DNA of 53,831 bases. Origin: a virus. Lineage: Duplodnaviria > Caudoviricetes. The notes beneath the pieces are model-generated. The model worked only from the letters and a program-made list of their open reading frames with translations, was not told the DNA's origin and ran no database searches. The stretch is from positions 1 to 53,831 of IMG/VR virus record IMGVR_UViG_3300028735_000012. One strand, written 5' to 3'. The position numbers were made by a program, and so were the translations under genes. Of the stretch, positions 8,000-47,883 are shown in pieces; the stretch's first letter is position 1; each line of letters opens with the position of its first letter.

Positions 8000-8052
8000 T
8001 CCTGGCCCCGGCAGTGCCGGGGCATAATCTGATCCTTTTGAGGGGTGCAACT

Positions 8053-11295: not shown

Positions 11296-11544
11296 TTGCT
11301 CATGAAAAAAATTAAGCGATGTATTGATTGCGGTCGCCCATACAGCACTCCTCGCAAGTGGATTTGCGGGCAGTGCAAATCCGAGAGGCGGCGACTGCGT
11401 GAGCTGCACGGATATGACGGCGATCCAAGATACACAGCCATCAAGGCCGCTCGTGTTGCGGCCTACGCTCGCAGAGTAGAACGGGGAGTTCCGCTCTTTG
11501 AACCACCACTAACGCGAAAGGAGATCTATGAGTCTGCTGAGTAA
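11296..11544 (+). CDS. Zn-finger hypothetical protein
   Basis: CIDC...CGQC; C-terminal YARRVERGVPLF. Confidence 0.55.
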   Translation: MLMKKIKRCIDCGRPYSTPRKWICGQCKSERRRLRELHGYDGDPRYTAIKAARVAAYARRVERGVPLFEPPLTRKEIYESAE

Positions 11545-13345
11545 AGTACAGCGTGGCCGTGTCGCAAGACCGCCTCGATTACTGATTTACGGTATTCCGG
11601 GTATTGGAAAGGCCCAGCCACTGACGGCAAAGGTTCTTACCCCCACAGGTTTTGTGGAGTTGGGGCAACTCCGCGTCGGCGATCTGGTCATCGGTTCCAA
11701 CGGACGTCCTTGCTCGGTCCTGGGCGTTTATCCCCAGGGAACCAAGGAAGTCTTTCGCGTCACGTTCCGCGACGGCTCGTCCACGGAGTGTTGCGATGAT
11801 CACCTGTGGTTTACCACTACAAAAGGCGAGCGAGATCACGGTTTGCGCGGTGCGGTGAGGGCATTGAGGGACATTCGAAAATCGCTTCGGTACGGGACGC
11901 ATTTCAACCATGCCGTGCCCCGCGTCCGGCCAGTGGAGTTCGAGACCAAGTCGCTGCCCGTCGATCCGTGGCTACTCGGGATGTACCTGGGGGATGGACA
12001 CACCGGCACCAGCACCATCATCACCAATCCCGAAGCCGACATCCAGGATCGCGTTCGTGCAGCGGTGGCGGTCGATGGCGACCGTGTCCGCCTCTACGAC
12101 CGGATGCACATGCGGCTGGTCTCAGCCGACCGAACGGGGACGGAGTTCAAAGCCGCACTCGTCCAGCTGGGCTTAGCCGACGCAATGGCCGAGAGTAAGT
12201 TTGTGCCGCCGATATACCTGCTCGGTTCGGTGTCGCAGCGATTGGAACTGTTGCGTGGCTTAATCGACAGCGACGGGTACGTCGTGTACCCCGGTTCAGT
12301 GGAGTATTGCACCGTCAGTCCTCAGTTGGCCCGAGACTTTTGCTTCCTCGTCCGGTCTCTGGGCGGATCGGCACGAGTGACAACGAGACGCGGTTCGTAC
12401 ACTAAGAATGGCGTGAGGCATAATTGCCAACTCGTCTACCGAATTTACGCATCCTTCCCGCCGGAGATCACGCCAGTTTCGTCCGAGAAGCATCTAGCGA
12501 AGTGGGGCGTGGCAGAGTGGCGAATCCTTCACACCATTCGGGACGTAGAGTACGTTGGGCGCAAAGAGTGTCAGTGCATCCGCATCGACGCACTCGATTC
12601 GCTCTATGTCACAGATGATTTTATTTTGACTCACAACAGCACCATTGGATCACAAGCCCCCAGTCCGATTTTTATTCCAACCGAAGACGGCCTTGACATG
12701 ATCGACGCGGCCAAGTTTCCGCTAGCCACCAGTTTTGACGACGTGCTAGCTGCGCTCACGGAACTCCGCCTACAGCCGCACGACTTCGAGACGGTTGTCA
12801 TCGATTCACTAGATTGGCTGGAGCGGCTGATCTGGGACCGCGTATGCCAAGAGTTCAACGTGAAGAACATTGAGAAGGCGGACGGGGGGTATGCTCGGGG
12901 CTACATGCACGCCCTAACGTATTGGCGTGAGGTCATTGACCTGCTCGACCTACTGCGTAATCAACGAGAGATGGTCGTGCTGCTGATCGCTCACGCCAAG
13001 GTCGAAAAGTTTGAGGATCCCGAAGCTCCGCCCTATGATCGCTACTCGCCGCGATTGCACAAGCACGCGGCCTCGCTTGTAACCGAGTGGTGCGATGCGG
13101 TGCTGTTTGCCACGCGGAAGTTTCGCACGGCTAGCGAGGATGCCGGCTTTGGTCGCAAGCGGACCATTGCCCATGCCATTGGCAAGGATGGTGGGGATCG
13201 GATCCTTCGTACTGTCGGCGGACCGAGTTGTGTCGCCAAGAACCGATACTGCCTGACCGAGGAGCTGCCTTTGTCCTGGGCAGCATTCATCTCTGCTTTA
13301 TCTGCTACTGCTGGTCATACGAAAAAAGGGGGTGGTGATGATTAA
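11528..13345 (+). CDS. AAA_24/Sak4-like phage ATPase (recombination) interrupted by an intein
   Basis: Walker A GIPGIGK|S split by the intein; Walker B VVIDS; LIAH, AKNR motifs; followed by DUF669. Confidence 0.85.
   Translation: MSLLSKVQRGRVARPPRLLIYGIPGIGKAQPLTAKVLTPTGFVELGQLRVGDLVIGSNGRPCSVLGVYPQGTKEVFRVTFRDGSSTECCDDHLWFTTTKGERDHGLRGAVRALRDIRKSLRYGTHFNHAVPRVRPVEFETKSLPVDPWLLGMYLGDGHTGTSTIITNPEADIQDRVRAAVAVDGDRVRLYDRMHMRLVSADRTGTEFKAALVQLGLADAMAESKFVPPIYLLGSVSQRLELLRGLIDSDGYVVYPGSVEYCTVSPQLARDFCFLVRSLGGSARVTTRRGSYTKNGVRHNCQLVYRIYASFPPEITPVSSEKHLAKWGVAEWRILHTIRDVEYVGRKECQCIRIDALDSLYVTDDFILTHNSTIGSQAPSPIFIPTEDGLDMIDAAKFPLATSFDDVLAALTELRLQPHDFETVVIDSLDWLERLIWDRVCQEFNVKNIEKADGGYARGYMHALTYWREVIDLLDLLRNQREMVVLLIAHAKVEKFEDPEAPPYDRYSPRLHKHAASLVTEWCDAVLFATRKFRTASEDAGFGRKRTIAHAIGKDGGDRILRTVGGPSCVAKNRYCLTEELPLSWAAFISALSATAGHTKKGGGDD
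11612..12637 (+). mobile_element. Intein (342 aa) with LAGLIDADG homing endonuclease, Ala1 start, class-3-like
   Basis: Starts AQPLTAKV, ends ILTHN/S; LLGMYLGDG and LLRGLIDSDG; block B DHLW, block F ECQCI, block G THN. Confidence 0.9.
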
Positions 13346-14803: not shown

Positions 14804-16197
14804 GGCTTGACGGGGCCAAGCGTGGCCAGGCTAGGCGGGGCGGGGCTTGGTGCGGCGCGGCCAGGTTGGACCGGGCTGGGTCCGGCCCGGCTTGGTTCGG
14901 CATGGTATGGCAGGGCAAGGCGTGGCGCGGCTACGCTCTGCGGGCATGGATGCTCGCCCTATCCCCATCGACCAGCAGATGTGCTGGTTTGTGGGAATGG
15001 GGCAAGGTTTTGCTGGGTCCGGCGCGGCGTGGCGGGGCCAGGTGCGGCTCGGTCGGACTTGGCGCGGCGTGGCGGGGTGAGGCCCGGTGGGGCCCGGTGG
15101 GGCGAGGAGGGGCTGGGTCCGGCGTGGCACGGCGTGGCGGGGCGTGGCTCGGCGTGGCGCGGTCGGGCTTGGCGTGGCGTGGCGGAGCCAGGTTTGGCGT
15201 GGCGGGGCAGGGCCGGGCACGGCAGGGCACGGCCGGGTGGGGCGAGGCTCGGCCGGGCTTGGCAGGGTATGGCAGGGCACGGCCCGGCATAACTAAGCTA
15301 AGCCACCTTGACCATGCCCGGTCAAGGTAAGGCGAGATAAGGATAGCTCGCTTTACCTCGACCGGGCGAGGCCGGACCTGGTGGGGCTGGGTCGGGCGAG
15401 GCCCGGCACGGCAGGGCATGGCGTGGCCGGGTCGGGCCTGGTGCGGCGCGGCGCGGCGAGGCAGGGCCGGGCTATTTTTATCGCCCCCGGTCAAGGTAAG
15501 GTGAGCTGTCTTCGTCTCACTTTACCTCGACCGGGCAGGGCGTGGCCAGGCTAGACGGGGCGAGGCCTGGCTGGGCGCGGTCTGGCTGGGCGTGATGGTG
15601 TTCGGCAGAGCTGGATGTGGCTAGGCATGGTATGGCTAGGTTGGGCACGGCATGGCGCGATATGGGCTGGCTCGGCGGAGCCACCTTGACCATACCCGGT
15701 CGAGGTAAGGCGAGATAAGGATAGCTCGCCTTACCTCGACTGGGCGCGGCGGGGCAGGGCGTGGCCAGGCTAGACGGGGCAAGGCCAGGCATGGCGTGGC
15801 GTGGTCCGGTGAGGTCCGACATGGCCGGGTGGGGCTTGGCGTGTCGCGGTGAGGCTTGGCAAGGTGAGGCTTGGCCGGGCTTGGTGTGGCTAGGCGTGGC
15901 CCGGCTACTTTTACCGCCCCAGGTCGAAGTAAGGCGAGACAAAGATAGCTCGCTTTACTTCGGCCTGGTCCGGCGGGGTCGGGCTTGGCGGGCCTGGGCG
16001 GGGCGAGGTCCGGCGAGGTCCGGGCGGAGCATGGCAGGGCCGGGCCGGGCGCGGTTCGGCGCGGCAGGGTGTGGCTTGGCGTGGCGAGGCCAGGCATGGT
16101 TTGGCGAGGTCAGGCGCGGCATGGCGAGGCTAGGCTTGGCCTGGCTTGGCGGGGCTGGGCCAGGTCCGGCAAGGCTGGTTATGGCTTGGCTTGGTTT
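14804..16197 (+). repeat. Array of ~215 GGY-NN pentamers in six blocks (14804-14933, 15001-15290, 15365-15474, 15534-15683, 15743-15907, 15967-16197); putative guide-RNA array
   Basis: Strict 5-nt period, e.g. ggcgc ggcgt ggcgg ggcca ggtgc ggctc; positions 1-3 nearly invariant GGC/GGT, positions 4-5 take all 16 dinucleotides. Confidence 0.95.
15316..15968 (+). ncRNA. Four related ~50-nt stem-loop separators (15316-15367, 15486-15535, 15695-15744, 15919-15968) between pentamer blocks
   Basis: ~20-bp stems CC(C/A)GGTC(A/G)A(G/A)GTAAGG(C/T)GAG...CTC(G/A)C(T/C)TTAC(C/T)TCG..; compensatory changes between copies. Confidence 0.8.
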
Positions 16198-16825: not shown

Positions 16826-18630
16826 TGGAGCTGCGACCGTACCAGCAGGCAGCGGTCGAAGCGGTGTATGACCATCTACGGACGCGGGACGACAATCCGT
16901 GCGTGGTCATTCCGACTGCCGGTGGCAAGACACCGGTCATGGCAACCATCTGCAAAGATGCAGTCGGGCAATGGGGTGGCCGCGTCCTGATCTTAGCCCA
17001 TGTCAAAGAGCTGCTAGAGCAGACAGCAGACAAGCTGCGGGCCATTTGCCCAGAGGTCAGCTACGGTGTCTATTCGGCGGGCCTCAAGCGGCGCGATACA
17101 GACTATCCCGTCATCGTAGCTGGCATTCAGTCGGTCTATCAGCGGGCCTGTGAATTTGACCCGTTTGACTTGGTGATCGTGGATGAAGCGCATCTTATCC
17201 CGCCGGACGGAGATGGCATGTACCAGCAATTCTTGGCCGAGGCCCGGGTCGTCAATCCCAACCTGCGGGTCATTGGCTTCACGGCGACGCCATACAGGCT
17301 AAAGTCGGGGCCTATCTGCACGCCGGACGGCATCCTCAACCACATTTGCTACGAAGTTGGGGTGCGGGAGTTGATTGTCCAGGGCTACTTGTGCCCGCTT
17401 GTCACCAAAGCGGGCAAGGCACGGGCCGACACTAGCGGCCTGCACGTCCGGGCGGGTGAATTCGTAGCCGATGAAGTTGAAGAGCTGATGGACGACAATT
17501 GGCTCGTTGAAGCCGCTTGTGCTGAGATTGTCGAACATACCCATGATCGCAAGGCGGTTCTGATCTTTGCTTCGGGCATACGGCACGGCCAGCACGTCGT
17601 GCAAGTGCTGAAAGAACGGCACGGCATCGAGTGCGGCTTTGTCAGCGGGGAATCGTCAGACGACGAACGAAGCCGATTGATTTCTCGGTTCCGCGATCAG
17701 GAATGGATACGCCAACTCCAAATTGACTTTGGTGCAACCGCCGCCCCCAAGCCGCTGAAGTATCTAGCCAACGTCAATGTGTTGACGACCGGCTTCGATG
17801 CGCCAAATGTCGATTGTGTGGTCTTGCTTCGGCCCACGATGTCGCCGGGCCTCTACTACCAGATGGTTGGTCGAGGATTTCGACTGCATCCAGCCAAGCA
17901 AAACTGCCTGGTCCTTGACTTTGGCGGCAACGTGTTGCGACATGGACCGGTAGATCTGATCAAGGTCAAAACTGCCAGTCGCGGCGACACCAAAAGCAAA
18001 GAATCACCGGCCAAGGAATGCCCGGAATGCCAGTCCATCATTGCTGCCGGCTATGCACGCTGTCCCAATTGTGGCTACGAGTTTCCGTCGTCTGAGCGCA
18101 GCAAGCACGAAGCAAAGGCTAGCAGTGTCGGCATATTGTCGGGCCAGGTGACAATTGAAAAGTATACTGTGCGAGACGTGTCTTACAGCGTCCATAAGAA
18201 GCGTGGTTCGCCGGAGGACGCCCCAAGGTCAATGCGGGTCAATTACCGGGTCGGCTGGCACGAATACAAGTCAGAGTGGATCTGCTTTGAGCATACAGGC
18301 TTTGCGCGGCAAAAAGCGGTCGCTTGGTGGAGCAAGCGGTCGCATGAACCGGTGCCTGCAACAGCTGCCGAAGCCGTCGCGATTGCTAATGCTGGCGGGC
18401 TGGCCTCGACGCTTTCGATCACCGTGCGATCGGTAAGCGGCGAGGAGTACGACCAAATTATTGACTATGAACTCGGACCAATTCCAGAGTTTCTCGGTCT
18501 GGATGAGGTCCACGATACTAGCAACACCGGACTGCTAGACGACGACGCAATCAGTTTTCCGTACGGCTACAACGCGGCTGATGCCACAGAAAGCGTGGCT
18601 GATACCACAGAAGATGATATTCCGTGGTAA
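16825..18630 (+). CDS. SF2 DEAH helicase (RadD/YejH-like) with C-terminal Zn finger
   Basis: LRPYQ, PTAGGKT, DEAH, TATP, QMVGRGFR, CPEC...CPNC. Confidence 0.92.
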   Translation: MELRPYQQAAVEAVYDHLRTRDDNPCVVIPTAGGKTPVMATICKDAVGQWGGRVLILAHVKELLEQTADKLRAICPEVSYGVYSAGLKRRDTDYPVIVAGIQSVYQRACEFDPFDLVIVDEAHLIPPDGDGMYQQFLAEARVVNPNLRVIGFTATPYRLKSGPICTPDGILNHICYEVGVRELIVQGYLCPLVTKAGKARADTSGLHVRAGEFVADEVEELMDDNWLVEAACAEIVEHTHDRKAVLIFASGIRHGQHVVQVLKERHGIECGFVSGESSDDERSRLISRFRDQEWIRQLQIDFGATAAPKPLKYLANVNVLTTGFDAPNVDCVVLLRPTMSPGLYYQMVGRGFRLHPAKQNCLVLDFGGNVLRHGPVDLIKVKTASRGDTKSKESPAKECPECQSIIAAGYARCPNCGYEFPSSERSKHEAKASSVGILSGQVTIEKYTVRDVSYSVHKKRGSPEDAPRSMRVNYRVGWHEYKSEWICFEHTGFARQKAVAWWSKRSHEPVPATAAEAVAIANAGGLASTLSITVRSVSGEEYDQIIDYELGPIPEFLGLDEVHDTSNTGLLDDDAISFPYGYNAADATESVADTTEDDIPW

Positions 18631-18657: not shown

Positions 18658-20985
18658 ATGAATAACAATGCAAATGAACTCGGCAAGATTGCCAAAGCTC
18701 TTCTTCGTGCGGGTCTAAGTGTGCTTCCTGCCAAGCGAGAGGGGGACGCTAAGCGTGTAGCTTTGTCCGTTTGGAAACCGTACCAAGAGCGTCTGCCGAC
18801 TAGTGCCGAAGTGCGTGGCTGGTTTGCCAATCGCCACCAGTCGCTATGCCTTGTATGCGGTGCAGTGTCCGGCAATCTGGAGATGATTGATTTTGACCTC
18901 AGCGCCGAGATGTTCGAGCCATGGTGCAGCTTGGTGCGCGAAATGGCCCCAGACCTGCTTGAGCGGCTGGCAATCGAGACTACGCCTTCTGGGGGCAAGC
19001 ACGTCATTTATCGCTGCAATTCGCCTGTCTGTGGCAATCTCAAGCTTGCTCAACGAAAGCTAATTACGCCAAATGCGGACGCAGTTACGATTGCCGGCAA
19101 AACTTTTTTGCCAAGAAAGGACGCTCAAGGAAACTGGTCGATCCTATTGACATTCATTGAAACTCGTGGCGAGGGGGGCATTTTTTTGTGCTGGCCATCT
19201 GAAGGGTACAGCATCGTTCAAGGCAGTCTTACTGAGCTGCCGGTCATTACTGCTGAAGAGCGAGAGATACTGTTGTCGGCGGCATGGTCGCTGAACGAAC
19301 ATCATGCCGATCCCGAACCTGAACCAGTGCCTGCTGCGCCAACATATGGTCTTCGCCCTGGTGACGATTACGCCCAACGCGGGGATGTCCGAGACGTGTT
19401 GCTCAAGCACGGCTGGGTGCTTGTCAAGTCTGGTGAGAATGAATACTGGCGCAGGCCCGGTCGAGATGTTGGATGGTCGGCTACACTGCGAGATCGGGTC
19501 TTTTACGTCTTTAGCTCCAATGCTGCACCCTTTGAGCCGGGCAAAGCTTACGGCCCGTTTGCAGTGTACACATACCTGGAACACAACGGAGACTTTGTCG
19601 CAGCGGCCCGGGCGCTTAGCTCTGAAGGTTACGGCGGCACGCCGGCGATTGTGTCGATTGGAGACCGCGAAGATCCGGCTACGCCCGCTATGGTGGATCC
19701 TGGGCCAACACCTGTTGAAATGTTGCGTGTACCAGGTTTTATCAGCGAATTGATGGATCACACGCTAGCTGTTGCACCATACCCGAATCCGGTCATGGCA
19801 TTTGCTGGAGCGCTAGCATTGCAGGCATTTCTTGCTGGTCGCAAGGTACGCGATTCCGGCAATAATCGCACCAATATCTACCTACTTGGCCTAGCTCACT
19901 CCAGCTCAGGAAAAAACGAACCGCGCAAAGTCAATGCAGAAATCCTCTATCAAGTGGGCCTTTCTGAATGTTTGGGAGGACAATTTGCGTCCGGTGAAGG
20001 CATTCAAGATGCTCTCTTTCAGACACCCAGCATGCTGTTTCAAACAGATGAAATTGACTCGATACTACAATCGATCAACAAGGCTAAAGATGCTCGACAT
20101 GAAGCGATCATGAGTACGCTGCTGACGATGTATTCGTCAGCAAACAGTGTGTTTTCGATGCGTCGCAAAGCGGGCAAAGAATCACCGGGAGCGATTGATC
20201 AGCCATGTTTAGTGATCTTTGGTACAGCAGTCCCAAATCACTATTACCAAGCTCTTAGCGAACGCATGCTGACCAACGGCTTTTTCGCGCGAATGGTCGT
20301 CTTAGAGTCTGGGCCGCGATCACCTGGGCAAGAGCCGAGCGTTGATCCGCCACCACAAAGAGTCTTGGGTACGGCCAAATGGTGGGCCAACTATCGACCC
20401 GGTACAGGCAATCTGGAGCAATTTCACCCAGTGCCGGCTGTGGTCGAATATACCGACGAAGCTAAGCAACTGCTAATCGAGACGCGTTTGGCCGCAGATG
20501 CCGAATACGCCAAAGCGGAAGCCAAGAACGATCCGGTTGGTACAACTGTCTGGGGACGAGTCAGCGAACAAACTCGTAAACTATCGCTGCTGTACGCTGT
20601 TAGTGAAAATCACCAGTCGCCACGCATTAGCCTAGCCGCTGTGCAATGGGCATCGGCCTTTATGATGCACCAAACAAAGCGCATGCTCTTTATGGCGACC
20701 GGTCACGTTGCAGAAAACCCATTTCATGCCGAATGTCTCAAAGCGTTGGGGAAATTACGCAACGCCCCCAACGGCCAACTTTCGCACAGCGTGCTACTAA
20801 AACGCATGAAAATGGATGCCAAAAGCTTCTGCACCCTCATGGATACGTTAGTGCAGCAAGGGGACGTGGAAATCATAACGGAGCCTACGCCCGGTCGCAC
20901 CATGCGAGCATATCGCATTGTCGGTTCAGTAGCCCAAGAAGTGAAACAGAAAAGCGAAACAAGCAGCGAAAGAGAAAAAAGCTAA
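18658..20985 (+). CDS. Prim-Pol bifunctional primase/polymerase fused to DUF3987-type helicase domain
   Basis: GLSVLP, MIDFD, ETTPSGGKHVIY, ETRGEGG; C-terminal HSSSGK and QTDE motifs. Confidence 0.85.
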   Translation: MNNNANELGKIAKALLRAGLSVLPAKREGDAKRVALSVWKPYQERLPTSAEVRGWFANRHQSLCLVCGAVSGNLEMIDFDLSAEMFEPWCSLVREMAPDLLERLAIETTPSGGKHVIYRCNSPVCGNLKLAQRKLITPNADAVTIAGKTFLPRKDAQGNWSILLTFIETRGEGGIFLCWPSEGYSIVQGSLTELPVITAEEREILLSAAWSLNEHHADPEPEPVPAAPTYGLRPGDDYAQRGDVRDVLLKHGWVLVKSGENEYWRRPGRDVGWSATLRDRVFYVFSSNAAPFEPGKAYGPFAVYTYLEHNGDFVAAARALSSEGYGGTPAIVSIGDREDPATPAMVDPGPTPVEMLRVPGFISELMDHTLAVAPYPNPVMAFAGALALQAFLAGRKVRDSGNNRTNIYLLGLAHSSSGKNEPRKVNAEILYQVGLSECLGGQFASGEGIQDALFQTPSMLFQTDEIDSILQSINKAKDARHEAIMSTLLTMYSSANSVFSMRRKAGKESPGAIDQPCLVIFGTAVPNHYYQALSERMLTNGFFARMVVLESGPRSPGQEPSVDPPPQRVLGTAKWWANYRPGTGNLEQFHPVPAVVEYTDEAKQLLIETRLAADAEYAKAEAKNDPVGTTVWGRVSEQTRKLSLLYAVSENHQSPRISLAAVQWASAFMMHQTKRMLFMATGHVAENPFHAECLKALGKLRNAPNGQLSHSVLLKRMKMDAKSFCTLMDTLVQQGDVEIITEPTPGRTMRAYRIVGSVAQEVKQKSETSSEREKS

Positions 20986-20991
20986 TCGAGC

Positions 20992-21200
20992 TTTTGCCTC
21001 TTCTTTCTTTTCCTTCCCCCCTCCTTCTCTCTGGTGGAGTGAAGAAAGTTTGTCGTCGTAAGTATAAGAAATATAATAAATTATCTCTCTCTCTCTCTCT
21101 TCTTTCTCTCTTTCTCTCTACTTCTCTCTCTCTATTTTTTTTTATTTTTATTTTTGTGTGTGTGTATATAAGAGAGGTGAGGGTGAAAGAGAGAAAGAAG
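20992..21200. repeat. Low-complexity pyrimidine/purine tracts ((CT)n, T-run, (GT)n); candidate replication origin
   Basis: ttatctctctctctctctcttctttctctc...tttttttttatttttatttttgtgtgtgtgtatata directly after the primase gene. Confidence 0.6.
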
Positions 21201-21302
21201 ATACTCCGGCACCGTAGATTGCTGTCTGGATAGGATTGCGCAGGACATTTTTTGTGACCGACGTAACGGATTTGTCATAGATTCTGCACTAGAGGATTTA
21301 TT

Positions 21303-21848
21303 ATGAAAAATGTACTTACGACTGGGCAGGTGGCTCGTATGCTAAACACTTCTCCAAGGACAGTGACTAAGTGGGTCGATTCTGGGCAACTGAAAGGCTA
21401 TCGACTGCCTCTCTCCCCAGACCGACGCATTCCTCGTGCATCGCTGCTGGAATTTATCCGGCAGCACAATATCCCTATTCCGCCCGAGCTAGGCTTGCCG
21501 ATCCTGCTAGTGGTGGGCGACCCAGACATGGCTGAGCAATTGCAACGGCAGCTAGTAGGCTGGAAGGTCGAAGCGGCAGACTCCGTATGGACCGCTGCCA
21601 CAATCGCCACTAAAGCCGGCGGACAGCTACGCGGGGCCGTTGTAAGCGGCCAAATAGGCCGCCTTGAAGCAAGAGAGATCGCCCAAGCCCTAGCAGATCA
21701 AATCCGCCTGCGAATCGTGCTATGCGCGGAAGACGACGACGGCTCGATCTGGACGAGCGACGCTGCACTCATGCGCATGCAGTATCCTGTAAGACCTGAC
21801 GCTATCTCGCGGGCCATCCTTTCGGGCATGACGGGGGGATCAAAATGA
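21303..21848 (+). CDS. HTH_17/MerR-like DNA-binding domain plus degenerate receiver-like domain
   Basis: VLTTGQVARMLNTSPRTVTKWVDSGQLKGYRLP...RRIPR, resembling a conserved planctomycete regulator. Confidence 0.8.
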   Translation: MKNVLTTGQVARMLNTSPRTVTKWVDSGQLKGYRLPLSPDRRIPRASLLEFIRQHNIPIPPELGLPILLVVGDPDMAEQLQRQLVGWKVEAADSVWTAATIATKAGGQLRGAVVSGQIGRLEAREIAQALADQIRLRIVLCAEDDDGSIWTSDAALMRMQYPVRPDAISRAILSGMTGGSK

Positions 21849-21893
21849 AACTAAACCGCCAGCAGATGGAAGAACTTTTTACCCAACATCAAG

Positions 21894-22003
21894 GCTTCAA
21901 TGCGGCCACGGTGAGACACCGTGGAGATACAAAGGACCGGTGGGTGGACAGGGTGCAGGGCTTCCAGCTTCAATGCGGCCACGGTGAGACACCGTGGAGA
22001 TAC
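21894..22003 (-). CRISPR. CRISPR mini-array: two identical 37-bp repeats and one 36-bp spacer
   Basis: Repeat GCTTCAATGCGGCCACGGTGAGACACCGTGGAGATAC at 21894-21930 and 21967-22003; internal CCACGGTG/CACCGTGG hairpin; reverse complement ends in ATTGAAGC; AT-rich region 22040-22240 is a possible leader. Confidence 0.9.
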
Positions 22004-22206
22004 GACCGGTGCCTACCGATTGCTGCATGAGCAATGGCTACTACGCGACAAATAATTGTTGCCACCCTTTTTTAAGGAGGCAAGTATCACAAAACATCCT
22101 ATGAAATTTTATTGATGACACTTTAACAATCCAAACAGTTGAAGATTTTTTCGCAGTAGTTTGTGTCGTGTTTTTGCTTGGAGGCGTGAAAGTTTAGCAA
22201 AGATTG

Positions 22207-22235
22207 TTGACTGGAATAAATGTTTTACGAATAAT
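22207..22235 (+). promoter_or_regulatory. Possible sigma70 promoter TTGACT-17-AATAAT
   Basis: Direct reading upstream of the sigma-like gene. Confidence 0.4.
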
Positions 22236-22277
22236 TGATTAACGGGCCTAAGCGGAACTCAACCCCTCCAGAAAGCC

Positions 22278-23231
22278 ATGCCCGCTGAAACGCAGCCACT
22301 GCTTCCTTTCTCCGACTGGACCGCTTTGAAAGCGGACAACTGGTCGGCCAAAGCAAATACGCCACCTACGAGAAAATCTCGCCCTTCGACTGATTCTGCT
22401 TGTTCTAGCGAGCCGACACAACAGCTCATCACCTTCACAAGCGGTTCCCGTCTCACCGAAGAGCAGCAGCGTCTAGTTGAGGCCAACCTTGGCCTAGTCT
22501 ACAATCTTGTCGGGAAATTTAGGTTTCCGCAGGCGTATCACGACGATGCCGTCAGTGATGCCATGTTGGCATTGGTCCATGCGGCACGCGGGTTCAAGGC
22601 AGACAGAATTGGCAAATTTTCTGCATTTGCGTATCTTTGCATTGAAAGAAGGCTCAAATCTTTGTATAATCGCATTTTGAAGTTAGAGTCGCGGCGTGCT
22701 TCTGACGTGACGCAACGCGACGAGTGGGACGACGAGTGGACTGAGAACGGCCAAGCTCTGCATGAGCCAGCGATCAACGATGCGCCTTACGTTCCGGTGT
22801 TGGACGATCCCCAAGGAACCCGACGGCCTATGTCGAAGCAATGCCGAGCATTTGGCGACCTAGCCCCTGTGGTGTGGTCGCTACGCTCAAGGCATCGCCG
22901 CGTGCTTTGTGCGGCTTATGTGCGTAGCACTCGCGTGCAGGCATCGCTCACCGAATTAGCTTGCACGCTACGTTGCACGCGGCAAGAAGCTCGTGAGCGA
23001 CTGCAAGAGGCTCTTGCGGCTCTGCGTCGCCGACTGCTACGCGAATGGGGTGACACGCCACCTCGGCCTTGGAGCGTAGCTGACGATGACGCCCTGCGGC
23101 CTCTGCTTGCCCTCACAGGTATGCGTCGCCAACTGGTCCTCATGCTGCTTGCCCAACGCTGGCAGCGATCCTACCGCGAAGTCAAAGCGCGGGCAAACTA
23201 CCTGCAACAGGAGGCTGACAATGGGACGTAA
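22278..23231 (+). CDS. Sigma70-family (region 2) sigma-factor-like protein
   Basis: LVEANLGLVYNLV...DAVSDAMLALVHAARGF...KFSAFAYLCI; region-4-like HTH later. Confidence 0.7.
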   Translation: MPAETQPLLPFSDWTALKADNWSAKANTPPTRKSRPSTDSACSSEPTQQLITFTSGSRLTEEQQRLVEANLGLVYNLVGKFRFPQAYHDDAVSDAMLALVHAARGFKADRIGKFSAFAYLCIERRLKSLYNRILKLESRRASDVTQRDEWDDEWTENGQALHEPAINDAPYVPVLDDPQGTRRPMSKQCRAFGDLAPVVWSLRSRHRRVLCAAYVRSTRVQASLTELACTLRCTRQEARERLQEALAALRRRLLREWGDTPPRPWSVADDDALRPLLALTGMRRQLVLMLLAQRWQRSYREVKARANYLQQEADNGT

Positions 23232-23949: not shown

Positions 23950-24123
23950 ATGGAGTTTTTGGGATTCGTGCTGGCTACACTGCTACAACTCTGCGGTATT
24001 GTGGCCTTGAGTATTGTCTTGATGTTGCTTCTAGGTATTGCCGCCTGTGTGCCGCTGGTAGTGCTGACAATGGTGGTCGCAATGGTTGCCAAAATGCGAC
24101 AAGACAAGGAGGGGCAAGAATGA
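23950..24123 (+). CDS. Small membrane protein
   Basis: GGGAG RBS; very hydrophobic. Confidence 0.45.
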   Translation: MEFLGFVLATLLQLCGIVALSIVLMLLLGIAACVPLVVLTMVVAMVAKMRQDKEGQE

Positions 24124-27542: not shown

Positions 27543-28301
27543 ATGCTGGTGTCCTATGACAATAAGGAGACACCTGTGATCCGATCGGCCCCGGAGTTGC
27601 TGGCCCGCGCAATGGGTGTATCCTGTGCCGGGCCGCAACGCTGTTATTTGTGTGGTGCCCCATGCGGCATGACACACACACGCGAAAAGTTTATACGCGA
27701 TACGTTTACCGGCGGCGCGACCGTGGCCTATCCCGCCTCGCGTTTTATCTGCGAAGGCTGCGTGCTTTGTCTGCGTGAATCCTGCGAGGTGCCACAATGC
27801 GACGGCACCAACAGGCATATCAATAAAGGAGCAATGCGAATGTGTTCGTGGCTGCTCACAGCTACGAGTGCCACGGCAGCGACCAAGGCGCACACCTCTT
27901 GGATTCGCGAGATGGCCCTGGCAGAACATGCTGCGCCATGGTGCCTGTCCATTGCCATCAGCGGTCAAAAGCACCTACTGTATCGAGGCGTGGTCAATTA
28001 CGATGCCGGCCCGGTGCGTGCTGTGACGCTAGAGGGCGAGCGAATAGACTATTACGTTCAGGATCTGCGCGACATGCTGGCTACAGCCACGGCTATTGTG
28101 GCAGCATGCGGTAAGCCATCCCTGGAAGATGGGCCGACTCCAGCAACGGTGATTCGGATGTTGGAATACTTGCCCCGATCAGGTGAAAAAATTGTCCAGC
28201 GGTGGCAAGCATATCTACAAAGCCAAGCTTCACAGTGGAGCTTGGCCTGTTTTCTTTCCCCTGCAAAAAAGGAGGCATCGCGTGTCGTATCCCCCGAGTG
28301 A
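27543..28301 (+). CDS. csf1: Type IV CRISPR-associated Csf1 (Cas8-like large subunit)
   Basis: CYLCG...ICEGC Zn finger, SGQKHLLY motif; first gene of the csf operon (start may be GTG 27576 after AAGGAG). Confidence 0.7.
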   Translation: MLVSYDNKETPVIRSAPELLARAMGVSCAGPQRCYLCGAPCGMTHTREKFIRDTFTGGATVAYPASRFICEGCVLCLRESCEVPQCDGTNRHINKGAMRMCSWLLTATSATAATKAHTSWIREMALAEHAAPWCLSIAISGQKHLLYRGVVNYDAGPVRAVTLEGERIDYYVQDLRDMLATATAIVAACGKPSLEDGPTPATVIRMLEYLPRSGEKIVQRWQAYLQSQASQWSLACFLSPAKKEASRVVSPE

Positions 28302-28761
28302 CAATGCAAAGCATAGGCTTAGTTGCGAGGATTTTCGGCGCAAGCTCGCCGACCACATTGACACGCAGCGAGTGGTGGAAAGTGTTGGTGAATGCATGAG
28401 TGTGCGTGAGGCATGCCACCGCTGGCTTGCCCTCCTGGCCAAACACTATGGCACTAGCGAAGACCGAACCCAGATGTGGGCACACATCCACAAAGCAGTT
28501 TCAGTAGCCCTAACCCGCGTGCAAGATGCCGATTTGGAACGATTTGCTACGCTGTGTCTAGAAGGCATCCACGCCGACCCAGTGCGAGTGGCCGCATGCG
28601 AAGCGATTAATCAAATGCTCACCACGGAGTTTAGCTCCGATCACCGCGATGCCGCTTGGCGAAACGCCATCATCTCCCGACTTCGCACCCATCTGACGAC
28701 CGATCTGTCCCATGCCCGGCAACGCTGGGCCAAAATCAAGGAAGGGGGCGTAGAGGCATGA
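28282..28761 (+). CDS. Cas11-like small helical subunit (type IV-B)
   Basis: GGAGG RBS before GTG 28282; all-helical pattern; position between csf1 and csf2. Confidence 0.55.
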   Translation: MSYPPSDNAKHRLSCEDFRRKLADHIDTQRVVESVGECMSVREACHRWLALLAKHYGTSEDRTQMWAHIHKAVSVALTRVQDADLERFATLCLEGIHADPVRVAACEAINQMLTTEFSSDHRDAAWRNAIISRLRTHLTTDLSHARQRWAKIKEGGVEA

Positions 28762-29777
28762 GTCAGACTTATCACGTCCGCATCCTGCATGAGGCGATTA
28801 CACCAATCGCCCACATGCGTGGCAACGAAGGCAACGTCAGCGTCATCAACCGACAAGAGGTCATGACCCCAGCTGGACTGGTCAAGATGCCTGTCTTGTC
28901 AGGCAATGCTTTGCGGCATCGAATGATTCGCGAGCCGCTGGCGGAACATCTTGTCGAAGCATGGGGACTCTCAGGGCGCGTGACCTGGGAATGTCTCAAT
29001 TTCCTTTATCACGGTGGCAATCTCACCGGCTCAACAGGCCGCGAGGACACCCAGCGGATCGCGAAATTGTGCCGATTGATCCCATTTGTGCGGCTGTTGG
29101 GCGGCACACTGCCCGATCAGATTCTCTGTGGCTCAGTCTCGGTGAGCGACGGCTTGCTTGTGTGCCGGGAGTTTGCACCAGCCATTCGTGCCCTGTTCCC
29201 GGCGTCGTCAGGTTGGGAAGTGCCCGACGGGCTACGCTGCGGCGAAGACTATCTCGGTCAATACCAGCACACAAGGGGTGACGCAGCTAAAACGCATCCG
29301 CTCCGGGGGCCGAAGGAGCAGGGGGTGGACAGCGACACCAACTTGATGATTTTCTCAGGCGAAACAGTGGTTCGGGGTGCCTTGTTCGCACAGCGAATTT
29401 CGCTGCGCAGTGTGTCAGATCTGGAACTTGGGGCCATGCTATTTGCTCTGCGACAATGGCAGGCGTCAGGAGGCACTGTGGGCGGCCAGTCGTCGCGGGG
29501 CAAAGGCTACCTGCAATCGGCTTGGCATGTAGAGCAAGCCTATGCAGACCATCCTGCCCCGGTGGATGAGGACGCTCCAGTAGCAGCGTATCTGAACCAT
29601 GTAGCCGCATTCAAGGACGAGGGCGTGGCGTTCTTGCTAAGCATTTACGGTGAACCGGGAGCTAAGCCCGCTAAGCCAGTCAAAGAAAACAAGCGTAAGG
29701 CTAAGTCGGCTAAAGAAGTTACACTCGAAGAGCAAGTCGCTACGGAAGGACCAGACAAGTCTGGAGAGGACACATGA
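28758..29777 (+). CDS. csf2: Type IV Cas7-like Csf2
   Basis: TPIAH, PVLSGNALRHRMIR, LYHGG, RLLGG, GGQSSRGKG Gly-loop. Confidence 0.85.
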   Translation: MSQTYHVRILHEAITPIAHMRGNEGNVSVINRQEVMTPAGLVKMPVLSGNALRHRMIREPLAEHLVEAWGLSGRVTWECLNFLYHGGNLTGSTGREDTQRIAKLCRLIPFVRLLGGTLPDQILCGSVSVSDGLLVCREFAPAIRALFPASSGWEVPDGLRCGEDYLGQYQHTRGDAAKTHPLRGPKEQGVDSDTNLMIFSGETVVRGALFAQRISLRSVSDLELGAMLFALRQWQASGGTVGGQSSRGKGYLQSAWHVEQAYADHPAPVDEDAPVAAYLNHVAAFKDEGVAFLLSIYGEPGAKPAKPVKENKRKAKSAKEVTLEEQVATEGPDKSGEDT

Positions 29778-30562
29778 GCATGGAGCCGTTGCGAGTATGC
29801 GCCCATTTGGCCACACCCATCCTTGCTAATCCGCCTAAGCTGGACGCTCTGCTGGAACTGCGCCTGAGTATGCGTATGAAGGAGGAAGCGTACAACATCG
29901 AACGGCCAGGTCGAGAAATTCCCTGGCCGCGATCAGACGAATTGTTGGCGGATTACCTTGCTCGGACGCAAGGCGTATTGCCAGACAAAAAGGCAGTTGC
30001 TTTGTGGGAGCATGCTCGCGATGGTTCTGCGTTCCCTTTGCCTCTAGGTTGGGAGCGAATCGGTCCCTGGCGTTTGCCACGAGTGAGCAATCCTATCTTG
30101 ATCAGCATTGAAGCCGACACGGTTCGCTATGTCGCCAAGCGAATCGGCACTCAGCGGGTCGAGCAAGTGCATCCGGTGGCAAGGGGTGTACTCAACACTA
30201 CGGGAGGTTGGACCAAAAGCTATCGCCTGCCCATGCGCCAGCGAGCAGCACGAGCAGTGGTGTGGTTTGCGTTCGGCCACGGTAGTGCGATCCGTAAGGA
30301 ATTACAGCGCATCGAAGCCTTGGGTAAAAAAACTTCGATCGGTGGCGGGGTAGTTGCCAAGTGGGAAGTTACACCTATCGACCAAGATTACTCTTGGACA
30401 GCCTACAATCTCGAACAAAATGCCCGCGTGCTAATGCGGACGCTCCCCGTGGAAGCACTGGCCACACTGGGTGATTGCATTGGTTGGAAGCGATCTTTTG
30501 GGGCTTGCGTTGCACCCTATTGGCATCCGGATCGATATACCGAAATCATCGAGCCATGTTGA
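29774..30562 (+). CDS. csf3: Type IV Cas5-like Csf3
   Basis: LRVCAHLATP...LDALL; LGKKTSIGGGVVAKW; MRTLP; APYW. Confidence 0.8.
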   Translation: MSMEPLRVCAHLATPILANPPKLDALLELRLSMRMKEEAYNIERPGREIPWPRSDELLADYLARTQGVLPDKKAVALWEHARDGSAFPLPLGWERIGPWRLPRVSNPILISIEADTVRYVAKRIGTQRVEQVHPVARGVLNTTGGWTKSYRLPMRQRAARAVVWFAFGHGSAIRKELQRIEALGKKTSIGGGVVAKWEVTPIDQDYSWTAYNLEQNARVLMRTLPVEALATLGDCIGWKRSFGACVAPYWHPDRYTEIIEPC

Positions 30563-31434
30563 TCCGAATCGGGTATTCGGCGGTCGAAAAAAAGGCAATT
30601 GTGGACGCCTACATTGCGTCTCGTGATGTTTCCACAATTGTTTTGCTCACGCCAAGACTGTTCGATCCCCAATGGGCGAACGCTGACCGAGTGGAATATG
30701 CCGAAATTATTCAATATCGTCACTACTATCGACTGTTGCGAGAGATTGATCAAAGCACACTAGTTGTGATTAACGAATGCTTGCGCACGCAAAACAGGCA
30801 CGACTTGACGTATAACTGTATTCAAAATTTTTTGTTGCAAACAAAACACGTTATTGTTTTTCAGACTTTGCCACTTATTGATCAGTTTGATGATTTTATG
30901 ATTTTGCTTGACTGGGCAACGCGAAGCAAATACAAGCGACAATCGTTTACCGCCAGCATGCTCAACGAAGTAGATTTGCAATGCAAAGCACTGCCAATTG
31001 CGTTTGAACCTATGGTTGTCCCGACCGATGACAGCCTTAAGAATCGCTACGAACAAGTGAAAGAAAGACTTTTTTCTAATCTAGGGACTAAAGATCCGCA
31101 TACTTTGCCTCGCAATTTATATTTGGTAGGCGGCAAGGCGAAACAAGCTCAAGTCCAGCTGTCTCAATGGTATCTGGGCAGAAACAATCGATTCAAATTA
31201 AAAAATCTCCAAACTTACAGCGCTTTGGCGCTGCCGCACGCGCCGTATGTCATCTTTGAGCTGCCCCATCGTTTTATCGACATGGCAGACGCGATTACCC
31301 TTTCCGGCCAAACACGGTTTACTGTTTTGCTGGCCGATCTCAAAGTGGATCATTGGTATTTCAAACGCTATCAACAATGGGCGGAAAGGATTGCCAATGC
31401 TTTCGCAACGTTATACGGGCGAAACGGTTCTTGA
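30556..31434 (+). CDS. Hypothetical protein (degenerate helicase-like) upstream of IbrA-like gene
   Basis: ORF, AT-rich; LVVINECLR resembles a Walker-B remnant. Confidence 0.55.
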   Translation: MLIRIGYSAVEKKAIVDAYIASRDVSTIVLLTPRLFDPQWANADRVEYAEIIQYRHYYRLLREIDQSTLVVINECLRTQNRHDLTYNCIQNFLLQTKHVIVFQTLPLIDQFDDFMILLDWATRSKYKRQSFTASMLNEVDLQCKALPIAFEPMVVPTDDSLKNRYEQVKERLFSNLGTKDPHTLPRNLYLVGGKAKQAQVQLSQWYLGRNNRFKLKNLQTYSALALPHAPYVIFELPHRFIDMADAITLSGQTRFTVLLADLKVDHWYFKRYQQWAERIANAFATLYGRNGS

Positions 31435-32524: not shown

Positions 32525-33036
32525 TGGCAGAGATACGCTTTCCTTGTCTTTCAGTTCGTATGGTGCCACGCGAGAAAGTGATTGCTAACAACTACAATCC
32601 TAATTCGGTGTCACCAGACAAATTGCACCTGCTTCGCCAATCGATTGTAGATAACGGATTTTGCTTTCCTATTGTTGTGATCTACGACGCCGACCGAGAT
32701 TGCTACGTCATCATTGACGGCTTCCATCGCCGCTTGATGTGTGAGCCGGAATGGCTGGATTTGCCCGAAGTTCCTGTGGTGGTTCTTGAGCATGATCTCA
32801 CGCGCCGAATGGCTGCCACGGTGCAATTCAACAAAGCTCGCGGCCACCATCAGGTAGACCTCGATGCGGAAATTGTGCGTTCCCTGATTGAGCAGGGGCT
32901 GACAGACAAAGAAGTAGCCGAGCGGCTGGGAATGGATCTGGACACAGTGCATCGCTACAAGCAAATCACGGGCGTTGCCGCCTTGTTTGCTCGCGCAGAA
33001 TACTCTATGGCCTGGGAGATGGAGGAGTCGGAATGA
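32521..33036 (+). CDS. IbrB-like ParB/Srx-domain protein with C-terminal HTH
   Basis: ANNYNPN, GFCFPIV, IIDGFHR, ATVQFNKARG. Confidence 0.88.
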   Translation: MMAEIRFPCLSVRMVPREKVIANNYNPNSVSPDKLHLLRQSIVDNGFCFPIVVIYDADRDCYVIIDGFHRRLMCEPEWLDLPEVPVVVLEHDLTRRMAATVQFNKARGHHQVDLDAEIVRSLIEQGLTDKEVAERLGMDLDTVHRYKQITGVAALFARAEYSMAWEMEESE

Positions 33037-47875: not shown

Positions 47876-47883
47876 GAGATGCT

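Follow-up and report, generated by a model that had tools for sequence, protein, structure and literature searches.

The 53,831-nucleotide stretch analysed here (the window), an IMG/VR virus record with terminase, portal, capsid and tape-measure genes, belongs to a siphovirus-like phage whose source is metagenomes of hot springs or microbial mats. We are highly confident that this phage carries a real CRISPR mini-array of host type whose single spacer represents an allele of the phage's tape-measure gene. That the mini-array serves to turn host interference on sibling phages is an appealing functional reading, for and against which we see the balance as even. The unit is a further case of the virus-borne mini-CRISPR arrays that are already known: it has one spacer between two repeats, its repeat is identical to that of host arrays, and neither Cas1 (PF01867) nor Cas6 (PF01881) was found in the window, a record estimated to be 70% complete. 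It is known that viral mini-arrays turn host CRISPR immunity on siblings, but few natural cases are well resolved, and the one studied by experiment is archaeal. Here, public data show the phage, host arrays with an identical repeat, a motif beside the protospacers and diverged alleles of the target gene that occur together with the phage's own. Since all players are visible, models of sibling exclusion, of decoy action and of capture from the host can be tested directly in one community.

The mini-array and its surroundings

Two 37-nt repeats, 100% identical and spaced by 73 nt, enclose a 36-nt spacer (Table 1), and on re-reading the window we recovered the same coordinates and letters for repeats, spacer and tape-measure site that an earlier note on this DNA had given. 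At up to three mismatches the window holds only these two repeat copies, with 0 expected from 100 shuffles, and the best other repeat-like place reaches 25/37, a score attained by 6 of 500 shuffles. A protein-coding repeat is ruled out, as 3 does not divide the period of 73 and as the sequence is that of a CRISPR repeat. The RNA fold of the unit is uninformative (z = -1.1), the palindromic repeats pairing with each other.

The site is intergenic and no gene is interrupted. The mini-array begins 45 nt after the end of an excisionase-type HTH_17 gene and, the mini-array aside, all phage genes but one lie on the plus strand. Upstream in the crRNA sense lies a leader-like AT-rich stretch with a GC content of 0.41, versus 0.57 in each flanking gene. 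On its minus strand only one site, a weak one, resembles a promoter (TTGGAT-17-TAAAAT at 22134-22106, 8/12), and an automated promoter scan of the minus strand of this region found none. The plus strand of the stretch holds a terminator-like hairpin (22045-22062) and a promoter-like site (22207-22235), and a host spacer matches perfectly inside it, at 22071-22108. The mini-array is a recent accessory, since G001, the one relative of the phage that could be detected, lacks it. A chimeric assembly was considered and rejected, for no host spacer matches the sequence that abuts the mini-array (the nearest matches are those at 22071-22108 and 22463-22498) and two exact junctions would be needed. 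Insertion into host arrays by way of the repeat was likewise given low weight, neither a tyrosine nor a serine recombinase having been found in the window.

Table 1. Positions of the mini-array, its match in the tape-measure gene and the csf cassette in the window.
Feature	Position	Strand	Basis or remark
HTH_17 gene (excisionase-type helix-turn-helix)	21303-21848	+	Pfam PF12728, E 1.3e-11; PHROG excisionase/regulator families
CRISPR repeat 2	21894-21930	-	trailer-proximal in crRNA sense; identical to the other copy and to the host consensus
Single 36-nt spacer	21931-21966	-	as crRNA, complementary to the + strand, i.e. to tape-measure mRNA
CRISPR repeat 1	21967-22003	-	leader-proximal in crRNA sense; minus-strand reading GTATCTCC...ATTGAAGC
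AT-rich intergenic stretch, leader-like	22004-22277	-	274 nt; upstream of the mini-array in crRNA sense
csf1	27543-28301	+	PADLOC, E 1.2e-44
cas11	inside ORF 28183-28761	+	PADLOC, E 9e-21
csf2/cas7	28758-29777	+	PADLOC, E 1.5e-66
csf3/cas5	29774-30562	+	PADLOC, E 5.4e-32
cysH-like gene (PAPS-reductase family)	33680-34417	+	Pfam PAPS_reduct, E 7e-8; conserved csf partner
Probable tail length tape-measure gene, 655 aa	45908-47875	+	PHROG matches and gene order
Imperfect protospacer	46262-46297	+	in the phage's own tape-measure gene; 29/36 to the spacer

Host arrays and the orientation of the crRNA

A search with the repeat pattern recovered 10 metagenome contigs, nine of them with arrays (L011-L017, L019 and L020) and one, L018, with a single terminal repeat. 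The nine array contigs hold 411 repeats, 397 of which are identical to the phage repeat at 37/37 positions, as is their consensus, and the mini-array is thus a genuine CRISPR unit, as had been claimed. The arrays comprise 401 spacers (396 unique) of 34-45 nt, mostly 36-37, so that the mini-array spacer has a length within the mode. At up to 7 mismatches, 50 of the 396 unique spacers (about 13%) match the window, 8 of them perfectly, 3 with a single mismatch and 2 with two mismatches; after shuffling, all 396 had at least 11. Because their arrays hold these 50 anti-phage spacers, the nine contigs can be tied to the host of the phage. One host array (L012) contains a 680-nt insert, which shows no likeness to the phage sequence.

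Outside these contigs the repeat left little trace. A 20-mer of it gave 8 single matches in 185,579 species genomes; the three inspected (L003, L005 and L007) proved to be coding-like sequence without an array, and no array with the phage repeat was found in the GTDB species genomes. Matches to an 18-mer in six viral contigs were discarded, as they do not reach the full repeat, and a search of a collection of papers for the repeat sequence gave two matches, both unrelated.

Four agreeing lines of evidence place the crRNA sense on the minus strand, with a repeat reading that ends in ...ATTGAAGC. The repeat matches Rfam CRISPR-DR16 over its full length on the minus strand (18.6 bits, below the gathering score of 35); spacers with perfect matches, which are hence recent, cluster at one end of L013, L014 and L019; the degenerate terminal repeat of L012 lies at the opposite end; and a T at -2 of the protospacers appears only on the 5' side in the minus-strand crRNA sense. 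The earlier note had read the repeat in this same direction, correctly.

This T at -2 is present in 16 of 22 host protospacers at up to 4 mismatches and in 31 of 50 at up to 7, with no comparable signal on the 3' side, and most of the 13 perfect or near-perfect matches (8 + 5) have the consensus flank. The crRNA-sense strands of the host matches are divided into 11 plus and 11 minus at up to 4 mismatches and into 27 plus and 23 minus at up to 7. The 5' motif and the absent strand bias point to a type I-like host system with motif-dependent DNA targeting. The effector type is here read from the spacer record rather than from effector genes, since every array contig breaks at the leader end, so that neither a host leader nor a host cas locus was recovered; beyond the trailer ends of L012 and L019 lie housekeeping-type genes, with no cas gene among them.

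The tape-measure match and possible roles of the spacer

In a gap-free alignment, the spacer agrees with the site in the tape-measure gene at 29/36 positions, 15 of them in one unbroken core. The runner-up place on either strand of the window reaches 22/36, and none of 1000 shuffled spacers scored 29 (maximum 25). The likeness ends at the spacer borders, and each 10-nt flank has 3/10 positions in common. The site starts in frame, 46262 being the first base of a codon in the ORF, whose translation there is KGPAGGQGAGFP. The mismatches fall at spacer positions 3, 6, 11, 12, 15, 31 and 36, that is, at 1, 6, 22, 25, 26, 31 and 34 in crRNA coordinates. The codon pattern noted earlier is borne out, with 5 of the 7 mismatches at third positions and 4 codon changes synonymous, a third-position bias that on its own is only marginal (binomial p = 0.045).

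The tape-measure label comes from weak matches to four PHROG tape-measure families (E 1.1e-5 to 5e-4) and from the position of the ORF downstream of capsid/head and tail genes; no Pfam domain was found in it. Only two homologues of its product were present among 5.8 billion proteins (54% and 40% identity), both with a peptide at the spacer site unlike that of the spacer; the protein search gave no phage match in GenBank and no close relative in IMG/VR; and a profile search found one relative, L027, where the best spacer match is 23/36.

Most likely, the spacer derives from the tape-measure allele of a sibling phage, since host spacers share the third-position bias (164 of 226 host-spacer mismatches against the phage) and diverged tape-measure alleles co-occur with the phage's own. 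Two runs, X2 and X3, which belong to a different study than the candidate source run, X1, hold a near-identical tape-measure allele with 0-1 differences per contig among the matches listed and, again among the matches listed, a diverged allele with 19/417 to 27/192 differences, whose changes are spaced by threes. Among the contigs listed, one X3 contig spans 46262-46297, with zero differences to the phage. The proposal of the earlier note that the spacer came from the gene of a related phage thus agrees with the mismatch pattern of the host spacers and with the diverged alleles in other runs, but a perfect protospacer was found in none of the collections searched. The search of viral collections for such a site in a sibling, which that note had suggested as a check, was run and returned none: neither the exact spacer nor its codon-degenerate pattern was found in IMG/VR, and the best match among GenBank phages (19/20 nt, E = 5) is at chance level.

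It is appealing to propose that the unit acts against siblings. Transcription of the minus strand would start in the AT-rich stretch, a host Cas6-type enzyme would cut the transcript into a crRNA with the 8-nt ATTGAAGC handle, and a host class 1 effector, type I-like by the spacer record, would take up this crRNA, which would steer host interference at co-infecting or superinfecting siblings with a diverged tape-measure allele. The carrier's allele would be spared by its 7 mismatches, which include seed position 1, and by a non-consensus flank: the 5' flank of the own site in the crRNA sense is CAA (from TTG at 46298-46300), with A at -2. The own site does look protected, in line with the self-avoidance proposed in the earlier note. 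This A at -2 also counts against the exclusion model, as do the lack of a convincing minus-strand promoter and the failure to find a closer protospacer. Indeed, each of the three homologues has a Leu or Val codon here, with the -2 base as its second position, and siblings may therefore also be without the consensus motif.

The exclusion model has precedents. Mini-arrays with host-identical repeats are reported to aim at close relatives while the carrier's orthologous site is point-mutated (PMC6858448, PMC11656645). In the account of Medvedeva et al. 2019 (PMC6858448), the Saccharolobus portogloboviruses SPV1 and SPV2 resemble the phage in their host-like repeats, their intergenic units of 1-2 spacers and the absence, as described there, of viral cas genes for adaptation or processing; their spacers target close relatives, and point mutations at the carrier's orthologous site prevent self-targeting. 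However, SPV1 and SPV2 are described as archaeal, non-lytic viruses with recognisable host-like leaders, spacers that hit near the mini-array and 100% reciprocal targets in sequenced siblings (PMC6858448), whereas the carrier here is a tailed bacteriophage with a candidate AT-rich leader only, a spacer that hits 24 kb away and no perfect target found. Closer in carrier type are the phage and prophage mini-arrays of Faure et al. 2019 (as cited in PMC6858448 and PMC11656645), which are phage-borne with host-identical repeats, as is the present one. They are summarised as usually leaderless, with most spacers targeting related viruses rather than the carrier and targets often in adjacent genes; unlike in those cases as they are summarised, host arrays, anti-phage spacers and sibling alleles are here visible in the same sequence data.

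Could the crRNA instead act on the phage itself? It is conceivable that a partly matching crRNA guides a non-cutting effector to the phage's own tape-measure gene or mRNA and so tunes late expression. Positions 2-21 of the crRNA pair with the own site save position 6, and 5 of the 7 mismatches fall at 22-34, which resembles the handle-proximal partial pairing described for regulatory crlRNAs (10.1101/2024.10.29.618823). Cracr, a virus-encoded repeat-plus-spacer described in the same source, shares with the unit partial complementarity and reliance on host Cas proteins. However, position 1 is mismatched, the flank is non-consensus, the site lies deep within a coding region and not at a promoter, and the third-position bias of the mismatches is as expected from neutral divergence rather than from a design for partial pairing. 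Cracr spacers, moreover, are described as short and as pairing with host cas or creT promoters beside a proper motif (10.1101/2024.10.29.618823), whereas the phage spacer is not shortened and, among the phage and viral sequences compared, has its best partner in a phage structural gene. We thus regard self-regulation as extremely unlikely.

A somewhat different role would follow if the host effector were of type III, a style of targeting that the earlier note had thought compatible with the orientation. The crRNA would then pair with the tape-measure mRNA of a sibling and set off Cas10-type responses. It is indeed antisense to this mRNA, and the 8-nt handle can hardly pair with the 3' flank of the own site, so that such a target would be read as non-self. 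However, the antisense orientation is a 1-in-2 outcome, the host protospacers combine a 5' motif with absent strand bias (11 vs 11 and 27 vs 23), neither of which would be expected under dominant type III selection, and no cas genes were seen on the array contigs, all of which are broken at the leader end. Type III systems also tolerate many mismatches, so that the carrier might not be spared by its 7, several of which lie where the crRNA is trimmed at its 3' end. With no positive support for it, we consider type III targeting very unlikely.

How the spacer reached the phage bears on what it may do there. Because 50 of 396 host spacers already match the phage, capture of the spacer from a host array is plausible. 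By the same count, roughly one in eight repeat-spacer-repeat pieces captured at random would match the phage, and the match alone is therefore no proof of purpose. Perhaps the unit is passive and without function, a fragment of a host array that was recombined into the phage and has not yet decayed. Phage mini-arrays are described as often leaderless and as possibly gaining spacers by recombination with host arrays (PMC6858448), about 13% of the recovered unique host spacers match the phage lineage, the unit is absent from G001, and the scan found no promoter on its minus strand. Such a remnant is less easily reconciled with two repeats that are still 37/37 identical to the host consensus or with a clean intergenic position beside a 274-nt AT-rich stretch; nor is the spacer among the 401 recovered from the host (best 23/36), in arrays that are incomplete. 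We consider it quite unlikely that the unit is such an inert remnant.

It is also possible that what matters is the crRNA rather than its target. Produced abundantly from replicating phage genomes, the crRNA could compete with the anti-phage crRNAs of the host for Cas6 and effector subunits. Its effect would then be that of an RNA anti-CRISPR, or of a non-targeting crRNA in excess, and the target of the spacer would be secondary. The phage is under strong CRISPR pressure, with 8 perfect and 5 near-perfect spacers in the host, and expression of RacrIF1 or of a canonical non-targeting crRNA is reported to cut interference and allow infection (PMC10651486). The Racrs of Camara-Wilpert et al. 2023 (PMC10651486) are, like the unit, viral mimics of host repeats that use host Cas proteins, and competition between crRNAs is plausible here too. 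Yet Racrs are described as solitary repeat units, with a promoter close upstream, that form aberrant subcomplexes (PMC10651486). The phage unit is not a solitary repeat lacking a canonical spacer and second repeat: its two intact repeats and spacer of normal length would yield a canonical crRNA. A strong promoter was not found, and a decoy leaves the tape-measure identity of the spacer unexplained, an objection that the 1-in-8 base rate weakens. A decoy role thus seems unlikely.

The type IV-B cassette of the same phage

The phage also has a type IV-B cassette of its own, which had been overlooked in the earlier note. By its gene set (csf1, cas11, csf2, csf3 and a cysH-like gene), the region 27543-34417 classifies as type IV-B. 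NCBIfam matches to csf1, csf2 and csf3 fall under their cut-offs, and the only PDB match of csf2 is 7jhy Csf2 of a type IV-B complex (E 0.004). The csf cassette is kept in 19 viral loci, in 15 of which a homologue of the cysH-like gene adjoins csf3. No DinG-like gene was found in the window, the only large helicase being of the ResIII/DEAD kind with a zinc ribbon. The cassette itself contains no CRISPR array; the host-type mini-array lies 5.5 kb upstream.

Given this neighbourhood, it may be that the mini-array guides the phage's type IV-B complex. The crRNA would arm the Csf complex instead of, or beside, the host effector; the host would give Cas6 processing only, and the nuclease-free complex, together with its cysH-like partner, would bind the tape-measure DNA or mRNA of siblings. 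The repeat would have to equal that of the host, since the host Cas6 would process it. All genes of a IV-B set are present in the window, and neither Cas6 nor Cas1 nor a DinG-like gene was found there. IV-B systems are described as having no known RNA source, with scavenging of crRNAs as a standing hypothesis (PMC8175902, PMC7038947), and a crRNA antisense to mRNA would fit the Csm-like architecture reported for IV-B (PMC8175902). Both elements are rare, and their chance co-occurrence in one 54-kb genome appears unlikely, by judgement rather than by computation.

The closest parallels are again archaeal viruses. In the description by Duan et al. 2024 (PMC10848311), the IV-B locus of Fuxivirus is atypical and combines the same genes (csf1, cas11, csf2, csf3 and cysH-like) with a mini-array of two repeats and one spacer, and the mini-array repeat of Chiyouvirus is, like that of the phage, identical to the repeat of its host. 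However, the Fuxivirus mini-array sits inside the IV-B locus, with no protospacer found according to that account, whereas here it lies 5.5 kb from the cassette; and Chiyouvirus spacers match their own genome at 100% (PMC10848311), whereas the target family of the phage spacer is known through an imperfect match to an own gene.

Several findings speak against a guide for the IV-B complex. Cassette and mini-array lie on opposite strands, and the genes in the 5.5 kb between them are unrelated (sigma-like, DUF1064, methyltransferase and thymidylate synthase). Around the 19 related csf2 loci, no CRISPR-like mini-array occurs at a distance of up to 10 kb. The sole IV-B complex studied is reported to have associated with heterogeneous RNA, whereas type I-E crRNAs expressed alongside it were not bound (PMC8175902). 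We therefore consider IV-B guidance fairly unlikely. If true, it would provide the first natural guide-target pair for type IV-B in a bacteriophage. The RNA partner and the function of IV-B are described as open questions (PMC8175902, PMC7038947), and a genome that combines a IV-B complex with a gene for a host-type crRNA offers a concrete experimental way in.

A scan of 10 whole records showed arrays only in G004, and these were dropped as support for an association of IV-B with arrays, as they adjoin a Cas12f/Cas12u1-like gene. In the window, ORFs at 30475-33683 are inserted between csf3 and the cysH-like gene; two of their products are unknown, one combines PAPS_reduct with DUF3440, and one is ParB-like.

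A CRISPR mini-array with the repeat of host arrays

The IMG/VR virus record of 53,831 nt is linear, with an estimated completeness of 70%, and carries nearly all of its genes on the + strand. Copies of the 37-nt repeat (up to three mismatches) occur only twice in the window, against none expected by chance. Rfam family CRISPR-DR16 aligns at full length with both copies on the minus strand, with the stem at the same position and the same ...CAUUGAA.C tail, at a sub-threshold score (18.6 bits versus 35; E 0.18 in one search and 0.004 in another). The decisive evidence that the phage unit is a CRISPR comes from metagenome arrays with the same repeat. The repeat pattern retrieved ten metagenome contigs, nine of which are CRISPR arrays while the tenth holds a single terminal repeat. 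In the nine arrays 397 of the 411 repeats equal the phage repeat at 37/37 positions, the phage repeat thus being an exact copy of that of the host population, and there are 401 spacers (396 unique; 34-45 nt, mostly 36-37). Fifty unique spacers match the phage with at most seven mismatches (eight perfectly, three with one mismatch and two with two), whereas the 396 spacers never came below 11 mismatches when shuffled, indicating that the arrays derive from a population that the phage infects. The exact repeat was not found in IMG/VR, and no array carrying it was found in 185,579 species genomes, which gave eight single matches, the three examined lying in coding-like DNA. One host array of 109 repeats is broken by a 679-nt insert (L012 6253-6931) that shows no sequence similarity to the phage. 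It contains an open frame of some 190 aa, and a terminator-like hairpin immediately precedes the next repeat; the insert may be a gene cassette lodged within the array, or two arrays may join there.

The mini-array is real. A chimeric assembly that ran through a host array is improbable, since none of the host spacers matches the sequence immediately on either side of the mini-array, and an assembly artefact was rejected on this ground. The leader-side stretch of the mini-array (274 nt) has a GC content of 0.41 versus 0.57 in the flanking genes. A consensus scan of this side found no minus-strand promoter, but a + strand terminator-like hairpin (22045-22062) and a + strand promoter-like site (22207-22235); a looser scan gave minus-strand TTGGAT-17-TAAAAT at 22134-22106 (8/12). 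Only one relative of the phage could be detected, G001, with 54% identity in the tape-measure and 44% in the sigma-like gene. The repeat is absent from G001, as is any mini-array upstream of its sigma-like gene, and from this comparison the mini-array appears to be recent. G001 does contain many copies, on both strands, of a GC-rich unit (GTCGCCCGGCGTCGGGC...) with a 24-26-nt period, a spacing too tight for CRISPR.

Several further features of the window were noted. A 61-codon open frame (21846-22029, +) spans the whole mini-array, with each repeat read in a different frame; it almost certainly does not represent a gene. Within 21055-21322, immediately upstream of the HTH_17 gene, a CT-rich low-complexity tract (21081-21142) has two pairs of inverted repeats at its flanks (32 nt with 72% complementarity, 22 nt with 91%), and this region could be an origin or regulatory region. 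Inside a head-tail gene, 42011-42047 (+) matches the repeat at 25/37 positions in the crRNA sense without keeping the hairpin, probably by chance, a score of 25 being reached by 6 of 500 shuffled repeats. In PHROGs, a 605-aa ORF (11528-13345, +) matches Sak4-like or primase-like families as well as terminase-large-subunit-like P-loop families. It is distant from the true terminase gene (34948-36396) and probably encodes an ATPase of replication or recombination.

Coordinates of features in the window and in related records
Feature	Position	Remarks
Window gene content		primase, helicases, methyltransferase, thymidylate synthase (minus strand), large terminase, portal, protease, major capsid, probable tape-measure
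HTH_17 gene	21303-21848	borders the 429-nt intergenic region holding the mini-array
Perfect 37-nt direct repeats	21894-21930 and 21967-22003	enclose the 36-nt unit
Sigma-70-region-2 gene	22278-23231	other border of the intergenic region
Cas8/Csf1, type IV	27543-28301	PADLOC E 1.2e-44, scan of unannotated ORFs
Cas11	in ORF 28183-28761	PADLOC E 9e-21
Csf2/Cas7, type IV cassette		PADLOC E 1.5e-66
Csf3/Cas5, type IV cassette		PADLOC E 5.4e-32
cysH-like gene	33680-34417	one of two PAPS-reductase-family genes after csf3
Perfect host-spacer protospacers	251-286, 7992-8032, 20626-20663, 22071-22108, 23953-23989, 33003-33039, 33863-33896, 50828-50863	
G001 GC-rich unit	L027 2557-2748, 7141-7279, 8474-8577, 9511-9630; L031 254-297	
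G004 (L061-L066) sites	1-614, 15424-15713, 17756-17791, 64905-65140, 102180-102287, 103821-105839, 105961-106291	

Origin of the spacer and fate of the carrier's site

The earlier note had matched the spacer to the phage's own tape-measure gene with wobble-biased mismatches, and this holds. The alignment with 46262-46297 is ungapped, with 29/36 identities and a perfect core of 15 nt, stops at the spacer borders and follows the reading frame of ORF 45908-47875, which at this site reads KGPAGGQGAGFP and owes its tape-measure label to weak PHROG matches (E 1e-5 to 5e-4) and gene order. The second-best site on either strand of the window scores 22, and none of 1000 shuffled spacers reached 29 (maximum 25). 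Five of the seven mismatches fall at third codon positions, a count that taken alone is marginal (p = 0.045), and four codon changes are synonymous. In host spacers that differ from the phage by one to eight mismatches, third positions likewise account for 164 of the 226 differences at unambiguous coding positions, so that the host spacer record points to a swarm of sibling phages differing mostly at synonymous sites. The mini-array spacer, which is absent among the 401 host spacers (best 23/36), looks like a further sample of this swarm.

The tape-measure region is present in three metagenome runs. X1 (share 1.00) bears the label microbial mat metagenome and may be where the window comes from; X2 and X3, with a share of about 0.6 and the label hot springs metagenome, belong to one sample of another study. 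Contigs of X2 and X3 on 45900-47900 represent a near-identical allele (0-1 differences per contig) alongside a diverged one, with 19/417, 47/572, 29/310, 27/245 and 27/192 differences among the contigs listed and changes spaced by threes. The third-position pattern and the co-occurring diverged alleles make the proposed derivation from a related phage's allele the most likely origin of the spacer. A perfect sibling protospacer, for which the earlier note suggested searching viral sequences, was found neither by exact or codon-degenerate searches of IMG/VR nor in GenBank phages, the tape-measure homologues or the G001 sequence L027.

Four lines of evidence agree that the crRNA strand, reading GTATCTCC...ATTGAAGC, is the minus strand of the window: the strand of the Rfam match, the location of perfectly matching and hence recent spacers at one end of three arrays (L013, L014 and L019), the degenerate terminal repeat of L012 at the opposite end, and a flank motif on the 5' side only (crRNA sense). 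This motif is a T at -2, present at 16/22 protospacers with up to four mismatches and 31/50 with up to seven. The crRNA would thus be antisense to the tape-measure mRNA, as had been proposed. Type III-style RNA targeting does not follow, since antisense is a one-in-two outcome with no other support, and protospacers show no strand bias (11 versus 11 at up to four mismatches, 27 versus 23 at up to seven). The 5' motif and the lack of bias rather argue for a type I-like DNA-targeting host system, a prediction read from protospacers and not from cas genes; all array contigs break on the leader side, and their trailer flanks hold ordinary genes. The T is missing from the flank of the perfect protospacers at 7992, 23953 and 33863 and of a one-mismatch protospacer at 28703, which may be escape mutations.

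Cascade complexes rely on a seed, and the carrier's site is expected to be spared on this basis. Its mismatches lie at crRNA positions 1, 6, 22, 25, 26, 31 and 34, and its 5' flank is CAA, with an A at -2 as in just 5/50 host protospacers. The seed mismatch, poor flank and five distal mismatches should prevent cleavage by a type I-like effector, making self-avoidance plausible. Siblings may share the poor flank, since in each of the three homologues the base at -2 is the middle position of a Leu or Val codon.

The phage's mini-array belongs to a known kind, published mini-arrays showing the same pattern. In the text available of PMC6858448, mini-arrays of one or two spacers with host-like repeats target close relatives, the carrier's orthologous site having point mutations or deletions, and the accessible part of PMC11656645 describes phage mini-arrays whose repeats equal those of the host and whose targets are mostly in related viruses. 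Perhaps the unit acts as a decoy, like RNA anti-CRISPRs, in line with an excerpt of PMC10651486 in which a non-targeting crRNA also relieves interference, or it has a regulatory crRNA-like role of the sort raised in the portion seen of a preprint (10.1101/2024.10.29.618823). It is also plausible that a piece of a host array was captured and is carried passively, since about 1/8 of host spacers already match the phage. These readings do not exclude one another, and the system is unusually complete for testing.

A co-resident type IV-B cassette

Downstream, 27543-34417 is a complete type IV-B cassette by the definition in the passages available of PMC7038947 and PMC8175902. NCBIfam matches for csf1, csf2 and csf3 are all below cut-offs, PHROGs files the csf2 and csf3 families as 'unknown function' (phrog_22746, phrog_34599), and the only PDB match of Csf2 is Csf2 of the type IV-B complex 7jhy (E 0.004). 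No Cas1, Cas6 (PF01881) or DinG-like helicase was found in the window. Csf2 has 383 homologues at E <= 1e-5, and the 19 IMG/VR loci encoding one have csf1 (18/19), cas11 (15/19), csf3 (19/19) and a homologue of the cysH-like gene (15/19), usually directly after csf3. In the window these two genes are separated by an insert (30475-33683), common only to the related loci L035 and L037, with four ORFs (unknown; PAPS_reduct+DUF3440; ParB-like with ParB_N+HTH; unknown).

The mini-array might be linked to this cassette, which provides a concrete handle on the open question of the IV-B RNA source. According to the same passages of PMC8175902 and PMC7038947, IV-B systems have neither arrays nor Cas6, and scavenging of crRNAs is a current hypothesis. 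Also in favour, Pinilla-Redondo et al., in the part of PMC7038947 available, sought neighbouring arrays, mini-arrays and solitary repeats at IV-B loci and found none, and in one archaeal virus a mini-array accompanies an atypical IV-B locus, no target being reported as found in the text at hand of PMC10848311. However, such a link is improbable, as 5.5 kb containing unrelated genes separate the mini-array from the cassette, which is on the other strand, no CRISPR-like mini-array occurs within 10 kb at any of the 19 related loci, and csf2 is also missing from G001. Among the ten whole records scanned only G004, a 106-kb viral record with the same type IV-B cassette, has arrays, and these adjoin a Cas12f/Cas12u1-like gene. 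The G004 array has a 36-nt repeat and extends across both ends of the contig; elsewhere, both strands carry further copies of this repeat, at least 11 in all, scattered and partly degenerate, as candidate solitary repeat units or mini-arrays.
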